Positions 3,401-5,053 of a stretch of 5,053 nt of DNA are shown here, one piece after another. Position 1 is the first letter of the stretch. The number at the start of each line of letters is the position of its first letter. Source of the DNA: a virus (taxonomy: Duplodnaviria; Heunggongvirae; Uroviricota; Caudoviricetes); IMG/VR virus record IMGVR_UViG_2778261058_000018, positions 1-5,053 of that record; one strand, 5' to 3'. A model generated the notes under the pieces. The model worked only from the letters and a program-made list of their open reading frames with translations. It did not search any database and was not told the DNA's origin. The position numbers and the translations under genes were made by a program.

Positions 3401-3508
3401 GCAGGAGCAACAGGGTACACTTTTCCGGGGCGTTATATGGCGTTATCCGGGGTCAGGGACTCTTACGGAACAAGCGGTCGTATCTGCCTGTTTGTGCGCA
3501 TCGAGTAA
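401..3508 (+). CDS. stf: Side tail fibre protein, lambda Stf-type, 1035 aa, modular
   Basis: ATG at 401 with GGAG at 390-393 (7-nt spacer); 1035 codons; stop TAA at 3506-3508. The N-terminus (..GVIRVYEDSADGSLNDFLGATDIDLRPEALKKFEEL..) and the segment TTQKGLVQL..LAATPKAVKTVMDETKTKAPLDSPAFTGTPT..ALDTLNELAAALGNDPEFATT..NALAGKQP resemble lambda Stf as recalled. An Ala/Glu/Gln-rich coiled-coil-like shaft spans aa ~105-225. Long uninterrupted ORF with uniform coding character. Confidence 0.9.
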   Translation: MPQLKGVIKTPTGEPLGGATITLTSLHNRAGILKSVFSHVTTQNGEYDFPVLPGVYSVRLTQSTQRLSEIGVIRVYEDSADGSLNDFLGATDIDLRPEALKKFEELAQQAQQSAEKAGEHATAAEQARQDTETLAGEIQQDAEEIAGNVQKAEKLASETNQNAARAEQAVKDADLIVQKAVDKLGEAATLTGEAKASAEAAAKSEQNAKQHRDEAQRIVDDLKGTSASTTQKGLVQLCSDTDNDSEELAATPKAVKTVMDETKTKAPLDSPAFTGTPTTPTPPDDAVGLETANAAFVRKLLAALVDSSPDALDTLNELAAALGNDPEFATTIMNALAGKQPLSDVLTAISNLEERADNLLCFNQDGNASLSPLSEKARSLLAQATVEAMRNELELKSAAVRDIQTDLYDSTEGRVALPGAFGYGMTDAGARSIIASNIADIARTAHNLHPGRYYTFSTRTEETTGITEIIWLDNGWGDKTSQTATKLVLFFGKDGRILMTVRGDNISAPVTWTNLTPQLGNAAQKDAQENIYDRTEGRLAIPGMFGFGKIFSSSDRTEFKSGTDFLRWVKTAKPGRYTVFADTNVVVPGIQTNGVIEIIWPQPKTSPNDEYAYKIIIYYGVNGHIYYNRCAVSSDGGYLVGWENLKVDEASLRALIEARAPLKSPALTGTPTAPTPPDDAAGNEIANAEFVRKLLAALVGSSPEALDTLNELAAALGNDPNFATTVTNALAGKQPLNDVLTAVSQITPEENTLPYFSADGRILLAQLSEKARALLALDTPEAMRTELELKAAATMEPQSDIRDRTPGRLALSGMYGFGQAFASTEALTFDGQADFAEWLKEATPGRYAVSIADSSTLLAGTTKFNGIIDVMWSPFDNDESDTTRKFKMLLCFNQYYEGEHSIHRLTYRWSGNNWNATVSPVIYDGDSLAFLLSRTAGSGSYFKYPAVGVPVLAVYRGTTSGDKEIKIGLGDVVQGSQLGGVNLSCTISSAGPGSYGSTPSAGATGYTFPGRYMALSGVRDSYGTSGRICLFVRIE
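1196..1450 (+). repeat. Intragenic direct repeat copy 1 (Stf collar segment, aa 266-350)
   Basis: In-frame duplicate of 2378-2632. Identical nucleotide runs include tttgtccgcaaactgct, ctgggcaatgacccg and tttgcgacaac. About 70 of 85 residues are identical by my hand count (APLDSPAFTGTPTTPTPPDD... vs APLKSPALTGTPTAPTPPDD...). Confidence 0.7.
2378..2632 (+). repeat. Intragenic direct repeat copy 2 (Stf collar segment, aa 660-744)
   Basis: Same frame, 1182 nt downstream of copy 1. Weaker similarity continues for ~70 further codons after each copy (..LSEKAR.LLA....EAMR.ELELK.. then D.T.GR.AL.G..G.G). Confidence 0.7.
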
Positions 3509-3510
3509 CG

Positions 3511-3514
3511 AGGA
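3511..3514 (+). promoter_or_regulatory. Shine-Dalgarno (AGGA) for the fibre-adjacent accessory ORF
   Basis: AGGA lies 8 nt upstream of ATG 3523, in the 14-nt gap after the stf stop. Confidence 0.5.
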
Positions 3515-3522
3515 AATAAAAC

Positions 3523-4098
3523 ATGAAAATCAGAGCGGTAAAAGGCATCAGAAACGCGCATTATCTCGAAAATGGTGCGGTTGACTGCGAGGTGCTATTT
3601 GAAGGTGAAAGGGAATTCGTCCCGTATACCGCCATGCAGGACGATAGCGCCCCGACAGGCCAGCGCATCTGGGAAGAGTTACAGAGCGGCAAATGGGGCG
3701 AAATCGCCCCGTTCACCGTCACGCCGGAACTTATCGCAGCGGCAAAAGATGCCAAAAAGCGGGAAATCGAGGTGTGGCGCACAGAACAGGAAGCGAAGCC
3801 GTTCACGTTCGAATGGAACGGCCACATCTGGAACGCTGGCCCCGACTCACTGGCTCGCCTTTATCCGGTGGTGATGGCATCAAAATCCGATATGGCATGC
3901 GACGTTATGACGTGGGGTGACGCCGATAATCAACAGGTGAAACTGTCGATACAGGAACTGGAAGAACTGGCGACAGCAATGGCGCAGGCACAGGTCGATC
4001 GCAATGACGAGATTTATCAGCGCCAGCGTGAAATGAAGGAGCAGCTTTCCCAGCTGTCCATACTCGACGAGGTGAGAGCGTTAACTGTCGGTGATTAA
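3523..4098 (+). CDS. Putative tail-fibre-associated accessory or chaperone-like protein, 191 aa; function uncertain
   Basis: ATG at 3523 with AGGA 8 nt upstream; starts 14 nt after the stf stop; stop TAA at 4096-4098. Position directly 3' of a fibre gene and size fit a fibre assembly chaperone. However, the C-terminus (..QLSQLSILDEVRALTVGD) lacks the Tfa-type motif seen in the upstream gene, so it would be a different family (possibly DUF4376-like; cannot be verified without an HMM search). Confidence 0.6.
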   Translation: MKIRAVKGIRNAHYLENGAVDCEVLFEGEREFVPYTAMQDDSAPTGQRIWEELQSGKWGEIAPFTVTPELIAAAKDAKKREIEVWRTEQEAKPFTFEWNGHIWNAGPDSLARLYPVVMASKSDMACDVMTWGDADNQQVKLSIQELEELATAMAQAQVDRNDEIYQRQREMKEQLSQLSILDEVRALTVGD

Positions 4099-4120
4099 AT
4101 AATCAGTTTGTATAGTTTAT

Positions 4121-4148
4121 GACGATCGATAACATCATATCGATCGTC
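4121..4148. promoter_or_regulatory. Perfect 11-bp inverted repeat (GACGATCGATA-acatca-TATCGATCGTC) carrying two GATC sites; candidate Dam-sensitive operator and/or weak terminator
   Basis: Read directly from the sequence: arms 4121-4131 and 4138-4148, GATC at 4124-4127 and 4142-4145. Sits in the 123-nt gap between the accessory ORF stop (4098) and com. Followed by GGTTTG rather than a strong T-tract. Confidence 0.4.
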
Positions 4149-4212
4149 GGTTTGCATCGGTTGTGATTAAATACCCCCAGCCCTCCGGGCGCTCATGTCT
4201 GGTTATTACACA

Positions 4213-4218
4213 GGGGGA
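4213..4218 (+). promoter_or_regulatory. Shine-Dalgarno (GGGGGA) for com
   Basis: GGGGGA lies 3 nt upstream of ATG 4222. Confidence 0.5.
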
Positions 4219-4221
4219 ATC

Positions 4222-4407
4222 ATGGACTCTGTTCGCTGTAAAAACTGCAATAAATTACTGTTTAAAGGAGGTTTTAAGCATATAGAAATTAAATGTCCTC
4301 GCTGTAAACGTTACATTGTCATATCGAATGCCAAAGAGCATCCCACGGAGCTGTATTGTGGGAAAAGAGAAGAAATCACGCATTCTGACAAAACCCTGCG
4401 TTATTGA
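4222..4407 (+). CDS. com: Com-like zinc-ribbon translational activator of mom, 61 aa
   Basis: ATG at 4222 preceded by GGGGGA at 4213-4218; stop TGA at 4405-4407. Product [61 protein letters not shown] has paired CxxC motifs (C6/C9, C25/C28) and closely resembles Mu Com as I recall it. The track's longer ORF from ATG 4195 has no ribosome-binding site, so 4222 is preferred. Confidence 0.85.
4341..4363 (+). promoter_or_regulatory. mRNA stem-loop occluding the putative mom SD and GTG start (candidate Com-responsive translation initiation region)
   Basis: UCCCACGG (4341-4348) can pair with UUGUGGGA (4356-4363): six Watson-Crick pairs plus two G-U, loop AGCUGUA. The stem includes GGAG 4347-4350 and GTG 4358-4360. 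Confidence 0.4.
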
Positions 4408-5053
4408 GTATGAAGGCCATATTGTCGGCTATGGTTCAAAGGAGCTGCGTGTTGAAACCATATCCTGCTGGCTGGCCCGCACAATCATTCAGACAAAGCA
4501 TTATTCCCGCCGTTTTGTGAATAACTCCTACCTGCATCTGGGCGTATTCAGCGGACGTGATCTGGTTGGTGTTCTTCAGTGGGGATATGCCCTTAACCCC
4601 AACTCAGGGCGCCGGGTCGTGCTTGAAACGGATAACCGGGGCTATATGGAACTGAACCGTATGTGGTTACACGATGACATGCCCCGCAACTCTGAATCAC
4701 GGGCCATCAGCTACGCGCTGAAAACCATCAGGTTACTGTATCCGTCAGTGGAGTGGGTTCAGTCCTTTGCAGACGAACGTTGCGGACGTGCAGGCGTGGT
4801 ATATCAGGCGTCGAATTTTGATTTTATTGGCAGCCATGAAAGCACGTTCTACGAGCTGGACGGCGAGTGGTATCACGAGATAACGATGAACGCGATTAAG
4901 CGTGGAGGGCAACGAGGCGTGTATTTGCGGGCTAATAAGGAGCGGGCCGTGGTACACAAATTTAATCAATATCGCTACATCAGATTCCTGAATAAGCGTG
5001 CAAAAAAGCGCCTAAACACCAAGCTATTCAGGATTCAGCCATACCCGAAGTGA
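4358..5053 (+). CDS. mom: Mom-like DNA modification protein (adenine N6-acetamido/methylcarbamoyl-type modification, anti-restriction)
   Basis: The frame is open from 4316 (TTG) to stop TGA at 5051-5053 and overlaps the 3' end of com in a different frame, which is the Mu com-mom arrangement. Preferred start is GTG 4358 (GGAG 4347-4350, 7-nt spacer), giving 231 aa. Alternatives are ATG 4328 (no SD) or TTG 4316. The translation (..[36 protein letters not shown]...[20 protein letters not shown]...) matches what I recall of Mu Mom. Confidence 0.85.

Follow-up and report, generated by a model that had tools for sequence, protein, structure and literature searches.

A candidate Com-responsive translational switch in the com-mom operon of a Mu-like prophage, and its counterparts in front of other DNA-modification genes

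The com-mom switch of bacteriophage Mu was worked out between 1987 and 1991. Among the systems described to date, the Mu operon is the closest to the locus presented here (Wulczyn and Kahmann, 1991; Hattman, 1999; Nowacka et al., 2019, PMC6483171). In Mu, Com binds the mom RNA, and mom is not translated without it (PMC6483171; PMC3378877); Com is regarded as essential for this step (PMC3378877). The start codon of Mu mom is named as a GUG, which lies in the stem of a hairpin referred to as the 'translation inhibition structure' (TIS), and Com binds a second, short hairpin just 5' of it (PMC6483171). In the loop of this short hairpin, Com recognises the motif CC(N)2-3GAG (Nowacka et al., 2019, PMC6483171); the native 19-mer target reads GAAUGCCUGCGAGCAUCCC and the target region reads GAAUGCCUGCGAGCAUCCCACGGAG (PMC6483171). 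The same authors noted another CC(N)3GAG in Mu and observed no melting of the TIS with a truncated Com (PMC6483171), so that TIS opening has the status of a model in Mu itself.

Com homologues are also found in front of DNA methyltransferases, namely at FluMu Hin1523, Pnm1 Nma1821, Hia5 and in phage B3 (Morgan et al., 2002; Drozdz et al., 2012, PMC3299994). Such combinations of Com and a methylase have thus been described previously (PMC3299994, citing Morgan et al., 2002), and for hin1523, candidate sites of Com binding had been pointed out at the 5' end of the gene (PMC3299994).

Here, we describe a viral DNA of 5,053 nucleotides from the IMG/VR collection, which was analysed at its full length and is referred to as the window in the following. 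It holds four genes, all on the + strand, the last of which, mom, ends with the last base (Table 1). We estimate at about 90% the probability that positions 4222-5053 represent the com-mom operon of a Mu-like prophage and that 4326-4363 represents a Com-responsive translational switch. Judged from its sequence, this switch is a close orthologue of the one in Mu and has all of its sequence-level defining features. In this respect, the finding is already known biology, with nothing new beyond phage Mu.

Table 1. Positions of genes and predicted regulatory elements in the window
Feature	Positions	Strand	Evidence or remark
Tail-fibre gene, 1035 aa	401-3508	+	
Tail-fibre assembly gene, DUF4376	3523-4098	+	
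com, 61-aa CCCC zinc-ribbon translational activator	4222-4407	+	Pfam PF10122 Zn_ribbon_Com, E 2.5e-7
mom, DNA adenine-modifying enzyme, 231 aa + stop	4358-5053	+	Pfam PF25680 Mom, E 1.7e-75
Putative Com target GAAUGCCAAAGAGCAUCCC, counterpart of the Mu 19-mer GAAUGCCUGCGAGCAUCCC	4326-4344	+	Homology, alignment
Putative Com-binding hairpin AUGC / CAAAGA / GCAU, 4-bp stem	4328-4341	+	Covariation across 35 Com loci
Predicted TIS hairpin, 8 pairs (6 Watson-Crick, 2 G-U), 7-nt loop	4341-4363	+	RNAfold
mom Shine-Dalgarno sequence GGAG	4347-4350	+	Equals the RBS annotated in the Mu record, L001:519-522
mom GTG start codon	4358-4360	+	In the TIS 3' arm; the homologous GTG is the mom start in the Mu record

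In a megablast search against phage genomes, Mu, SfMu, D108 and their relatives align with the window from 4232 onward at ~89% DNA identity. The same operon with the same switch is found in SfMu, D108 and Mu-like prophages of E. coli, Shigella and Yersinia. Complete E. coli genomes show the same arrangement at up to 94.9% identity, at the right end of Mu-like prophages that occupy varied insertion sites, for instance inside flhA. The region 3500-5053, which comprises the tail-fibre assembly gene, com and mom, has matches in 647 of 5426 complete E. coli genomes, and at least 80% of it is covered in 18 of these 647. The exact phage is absent from the collections searched, where the best DNA identity to the window is ~95-97%; the window-type allele, with a Com beginning MDSVRC... 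and the loop triplet AAA, was found repeatedly among IMG/VR contigs. Between the tail-fibre assembly gene and com, within 3523-4221, the window has neither a gin invertase nor an invertible G segment. Mu, SfMu and D108 carry gin and the G segment upstream of com, whereas the E. coli relatives have the layout of the window. The tail-fibre gene contains a 254-nt direct repeat (1196-1449 and 2378-2631, 78% identity, 1182 nt apart), a duplicated module bearing the Phage_fiber_2 repeat region.

Window and Mu have the gene order, the 50-nt out-of-frame overlap of com and mom, and the arrangement GGAG N7 GUG in common. Both encode a zinc-ribbon Com of the CCCC type and a Mom protein of 231 residues that is ~98% identical between the two; identity to Mom of the Mu-type phages SfMu, Mu_3F6 and vB_YpM_23 is 97.8-98.7%. 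Com, with its four zinc-binding cysteines at residues 6, 9, 25 and 28, is encoded just upstream of its target gene and overlaps it, and a Mom-family DNA-modification enzyme follows downstream. At the protein level, this Com is 74% identical to its Mu counterpart, and its spacer between the zinc knuckles is one residue shorter; its start, preceded by GGGGGA, aligns with the ATG of Mu com. The com stop codon lies at 4405-4407. All coordinates in an earlier note on this DNA prove correct, including those of the overlap (4358-4407), in which mom is read in the +1 frame with respect to com. Across 4099-4231, which comprises the promoter region and the beginning of com, megablast finds no alignment with Mu, and similarity sets in at 4232. 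Aeromonas phage pAEv1818 has a Mom homologue of 69% identity directly after its antiterminator Q gene; upstream of it, we found neither a com gene nor a Com hairpin. Mom is therefore not invariably paired with the Com switch.

Around the start of mom, the agreement with Mu is nearly complete. The segment GAGCAUCCCACGGAG....AUUGUGGGAAAAGAGAA is identical in the two except for four loop bases, and when SfMu and D108 are added to the alignment, GAGCATCCCACGGAG....ATTGTGGGAAAAGAGAA is invariant except for four loop bases, CTGT in the window versus AAAC in Mu. The TIS arms UCCCACGG and UUGUGGGA equal those of Mu at every base, and the TIS loop reads AGCUGUA in the window and AGAAACA in Mu. Likewise, the stem AUGC/GCAU of the Com hairpin and the CC(N)3GAG motif are present in both, whereas the loop is CAAAGA in the window and CUGCGA in Mu. 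The two 19-mer targets diverge solely at the three 'N' positions of CC(N)3GAG, where UGC in Mu is replaced by AAA. The earlier note had proposed that the locus follows the logic of the Mu operon, and the presence of an orthologous element whose TIS arms, Shine-Dalgarno sequence and GUG are identical to those of Mu supports this proposal.

RNAfold predicts the TIS as a hairpin of -9.3 kcal/mol, in which 4341-4348 pair with 4356-4363 (U4341-A4363, C4342-G4362, C4343-G4361, C4344-G4360, A4345-U4359, C4346-G4358, G4347-U4357 and G4348-U4356). The five core pairs CCCAC/GUGGG have a probability of ~0.98 in folds of 56, 101, 181 and 301 nt, and the GUG is paired with a probability of ~1.0 in all folding contexts. 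GGAG and GTG had both been assigned to the stem in the earlier note. This is correct for the GTG, but the Shine-Dalgarno sequence is half buried: G4347 and G4348 form G-U wobbles in the stem, whereas A4349 and G4350 belong to the loop, and the unpaired probabilities rise from 0.17 (G4347) through 0.45 (G4348) and 0.71 (A4349) to 0.95 (G4350). Folding of 4300-4400 recovers the expected hairpin with its well-defined core, although its stability is unexceptional, with a shuffle z-score of -0.64 for this stretch.

Immediately 5' of the TIS lies a short hairpin with a C-G closing pair, in which the CC(N)3GAG motif spans the loop and the predicted stem is formed by 4328-4331 and 4338-4341. A scan of genome contigs with Mom alone yielded 3 loci; a scan of IMG/VR with a Com alignment was far more productive and gave 80 loci, which were reduced to 35 distinct Com sites. 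At each distinct locus, the site was chosen as the first CCNNNGAG after the zinc ribbon, and pairing was not required; this pattern fixes the C-G closing pair and leaves the three outer stem pairs free. Across the 35 sites, 95.7% of the stem cells are paired, the closing pair included, compared to 7-52% in slid controls. Three of the four stem pairs show double-sided changes, and the observed covariation score was reached by 0 of 500 shuffles. The stems seen are AUGC/GCAU, GUGC/GCAU, ACGC/GCGU, GCGC/GCGC, AGGC/GCCU, GCAC/GUGC and AGUC/GACU, and a GA 5' and a C 3' of the stem are nearly invariant. With respect to com, the hairpin lies in codon phase 1 in the Mu type and in phase 2 in the Pseudomonas type. 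As it occurs in different com frames, its conservation acts on the RNA and not on the tail of the Com protein.

A covariance model built from 22 distant sites, none of them from the enterobacterial mom clade, detects a single significant site in the window, covering 4322-4347 of the + strand (23.9 bits, rough E 2e-4), the next-best match scoring 6.7 bits. Both this model and homology agree with the earlier note, which had expected the Com target at around 4320-4340 and was essentially right. A permissive Rfam search over 4050-4600 gave nothing near a gathering score, and no Rfam family covers the element. The loop triplets found in nature are AAA, CGG, CAG and UGC. This variation and the free variation of the TIS loop agree with the SELEX-derived rule, by which only CC...GAG and the stem matter.

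On its own, the Com hairpin is weak (-2.4 kcal/mol). Its 5' part and the two preceding bases, GAAUGC at 4326-4331, can also pair with GCAUUC at 4381-4386, enclosing the TIS, and in long-context folds this helix outcompetes the Com hairpin, leaving it a probability of 0.01-0.09. We considered the long-range helix as a conserved feature and rejected it: it appears in the minimum-energy folds of the window and of close relatives and is absent from the distant loci L004 and L096. Nor do we include in the family signature the second CC(N)3GAG, at 4343-4350, which Nowacka et al. noted for Mu; it overlaps the TIS 5' arm and the Shine-Dalgarno sequence and is not conserved outside the near clade.

Taken together with what is known for Mu, these elements would act as follows. 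As long as the mRNA is not bound by Com, the TIS is predicted to enclose both the GUG from which mom would be translated and a portion of its GGAG, and initiation by the 30S subunit would be blocked. Com, a product of the same transcript, would bind the small hairpin immediately 5' of the TIS, with which it has U4341 in common, and would recognise CC(N)3GAG as presented by the loop and its C-G closing pair. Binding would destabilise the TIS and expose the start signals, and the toxic Mom would be made only once Com accumulates late in infection. For the window, both Com binding and TIS opening are what we infer by homology with Mu.

It is also conceivable that unmasking occurs mainly in cis, with ribosomes that translate com melting the TIS and Com protein playing a minor role. 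Given that com stops only at 4405-4407, ribosomes on com must indeed cross the TIS and may exert some effect in cis, and the earlier note had likewise suggested that the overlap couples com to mom. Measured from the start of the Com site, however, the com stop varies across loci between 169 nt downstream and 22 nt upstream. In some of them, com ends before the start of the target gene or even before the Com site, and hairpin and spacing are nevertheless kept: at L101, the end of com and the methylase start are separated by 30 nt, and at L107, the Com site follows the com stop by 22 nt. For the majority of the distant Com loci, the target start is likewise predicted to be paired, at a distance of 14-25 nt from the hairpin. 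Since com and its target do not overlap in some loci, the overlap does not belong to the conserved mechanism, and coupling through it finds no support as a conserved feature. Moreover, Com reportedly acts in trans on mom fusions (Wulczyn et al., 1989; Hattman et al., 1987). It has further been described as indispensable for the translation of mom (PMC3378877) and as a protein that binds RNA specifically (PMC6483171). We therefore regard unmasking in cis as improbable, and prefer unmasking by the Com protein.

The proposed switch presupposes that mom begins at the GUG, and this codon is favoured by several features of the sequence. As the earlier note had pointed out, the GTG at 4358 opens a reading frame of 231 codons plus stop and has a well-placed GGAG, the spacing being 7 nt. 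The alternative would be translation from the AUG at 4328 (241 aa) or the UUG at 4316 (245 aa), in which case the hairpin around the GTG would merely be internal. The mom frame is open from 4316, and longer forms of mom (241-245 aa, starting at ATG or an earlier codon) are annotated in the GenBank records of SfMu and D108; an older RefSeq entry, 'protein mom' of E. coli ETEC1732, also starts upstream of the GTG. Public records are inconsistent in this regard: the GenBank record of Mu (AF083977) annotates the homologous GGAG as RBS and the homologous GTG as mom start, in line with the GUG given for Mu in the literature (PMC6483171), and for E. coli VL40, a RefSeq entry of more recent date ('tRNA(Gly)-dependent adenine aminoacyltransferase Mom') has the GTG start as well.

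The sequences themselves argue against both upstream codons. A search for GGAG, GAGG or AGGA 5' of ATG 4328 and TTG 4316 found none, nor any purine-rich ribosome-binding sequence, which bears out the earlier note with regard to the ATG and extends to the TTG. The unused in-frame AUG at 4328 is instead part of the 5' arm of the Com hairpin, and in the close relatives L036 and L041 it is replaced by GUG. In L004, a Scandinavium MAG with a Mom of 82% identity, a UAA in the mom frame stands immediately 5' of the Shine-Dalgarno sequence, between the position of the upstream AUG and the GUG, which is therefore the only possible start in this locus. Finally, the pattern of substitution changes at the GUG. 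Among 28 ungapped haplotypes of the Mu/window clade, 13 of the 28 variable sites 5' of 4358 occupy the third position of com codons and hence the second position in the mom frame, as expected if the com frame is followed there, whereas 6 of the 8 variable sites within 4358-4407 fall on mom position 3. From this shift of codon positions from com to mom, it follows that protein constraint in the mom frame starts at 4358. The L004 stop, the codon-position switch and the spacing of the Shine-Dalgarno sequence thus favour initiation at the GUG, and we judge an upstream start to be slightly less probable still than unmasking in cis. For annotation, this means that mom should begin at GTG 4358, with 231 aa, and not at ATG 4328. 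Two loci, L045 and L069 (around 1123-1140), have an extra A in the A-run after GUGGG, which puts the GUG out of the mom frame and brings a UUG one base upstream into it; this is either a shift of the start codon or a homopolymer sequencing error.

The stability of the TIS does not exceed chance: the 33-mer has a shuffle z-score of -1.81, and in a sliding scan, 8.7% of all 33-nt stretches in the window fold at least as well. What raises the hairpin above chance is its conservation, not its stability. Among the 28 haplotypes, 1 of 16 positions is variable in the arms. The corresponding figures are 5 of 7 for the loop (arms versus loop, Fisher p = 0.003) and 47 of 96 for the flanks, where the sequence is com-only or mom-only (arms versus flanks, p = 0.001). 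The sole variable arm position is C4346, which is a U in L010, where a U-G pair is kept. Both arms code for Com and the 3' arm for Mom too, so this conservation is partly due to coding. The com third-codon positions, however, reveal a constraint at the RNA level over 4326-4356, where 2 of 11 are variable, as against 11 of 12 in 4290-4323 just upstream. The two that vary are the free loop bases 4335 and 4353, and the frozen synonymous sites include 4341, 4344 and 4347 in the TIS 5' arm.

Beyond the clade, the CCCAC/GUGGG arms persist in the distant loci L004, L070 and L096, with loops growing from 7 to 17 nt. As this core is invariant in the clade, covariation comes from the outer pair alone, which is U-A in the window and Mu, U-G in L004, and C-G in L096 and L070. 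In L004 and L070, the Shine-Dalgarno sequence lies in the loop and the GUG is still in the stem; on this comparative evidence, the conserved feature of the TIS is the occlusion of the start codon, not of the Shine-Dalgarno sequence. That the TIS might be a chance by-product of two overlapping frames, devoid of a regulatory role, is hardly credible: although its folding energy is common in the window and both of its arms are coding sequence, such a view is at odds with the frozen com sites, the freely varying loop, the retention of the arms in L070 next to a different cargo gene, the changes of the outer pair and the experimental structure probing of the Mu site cited in PMC6483171.

At 4121-4148, the window contains a perfect 11-nt inverted repeat, GACGATCGATA and TATCGATCGTC, with 6 nt between the arms and one GATC in each arm (4124 and 4142); GATC is otherwise depleted, with 4 sites in the window versus 15.3 expected. 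This repeat aligns with the Dam/OxyR control region upstream of the mom promoter in Mu. Two of the three upstream GATC sites of Mu are kept, whereas the third reads GCATCG, and the equivalent of the Mu C-activator dyad TTAT N6 ATAA has diverged to TTGTGATTAAATAC. The combination that controls Pmom in Mu, three clustered GATC sites and a C-protein dyad upstream of com, is thus not found in the window. A sigma-70 promoter scan over 4050-4420 yielded no matches, which fits an activator-dependent promoter yet is uninformative. The operon of the window may use a different late activator site.

At the Com-methyltransferase loci, a zinc ribbon is followed by a hairpin of the form GA-stem-CNNNGA-stem-C, located 14-40 nt before the start of the DNA-modification gene, and the target start is usually predicted to be paired, as in the window. 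The difference lies in the cargo, which is a D12, N6_N4 or C5 methyltransferase in these loci and Mom in Mu and the window; the presence of N6_N4, D12 and C5 enzymes downstream of Com was confirmed by Pfam. The IMG/VR loci L070-L087 (around 1304-1350) carry the module known from Mu, CCCCAC...GAGGAG N8 GUGGGG, before an N6_N4 DNA methyltransferase. The probable start of this methylase is the stem-located GUG; the AUG chosen by longest-ORF reading lies only 2 nt after the Shine-Dalgarno sequence.

In the phages JD024 and PAN70 and at the loci L108, L114 and L129, by contrast with Mu and the window, the predicted helix that covers the start uses bases of the Com hairpin or its loop, and for this reason, the Com-bound and the inhibitory fold would be mutually exclusive. 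Two architectures may accordingly be distinguished. In the first, represented by Mu, the window and the methylase loci of the L070 type, a separate inhibitory hairpin stands next to the Com hairpin, and a CCCAC...GUGGG stem and a GUG start are common to all of them. In the second, found at mom loci of the Pseudomonas type and at many metagenomic loci, among them many of those with a methyltransferase, the inhibitory helix and the Com hairpin overlap, and the two folds are predicted to exclude each other.

The gene kinds behind Com appear to be Mom and the D12, N6_N4 and C5 methyltransferases. It is tempting, if rather speculative, to view the Com switch as a portable cassette, consisting of the zinc-ribbon gene, the GA-stem-CNNNGA-stem-C hairpin and a start-occluding helix, which was recombined before at least four kinds of DNA-modification gene; we consider this possible, but hold it with some doubt. 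What might be new in this work is confined to the systematic covariation, the occurrence of the hairpin in different com frames and the distinction of two architectures. If the overlapping architecture is real, it would explain the opening of the start site by Com more clearly than the arrangement in Mu. For the window, the RNA element at 4326-4363 should be annotated as the probable Com switch that silences a toxic DNA-modifying enzyme until late infection.
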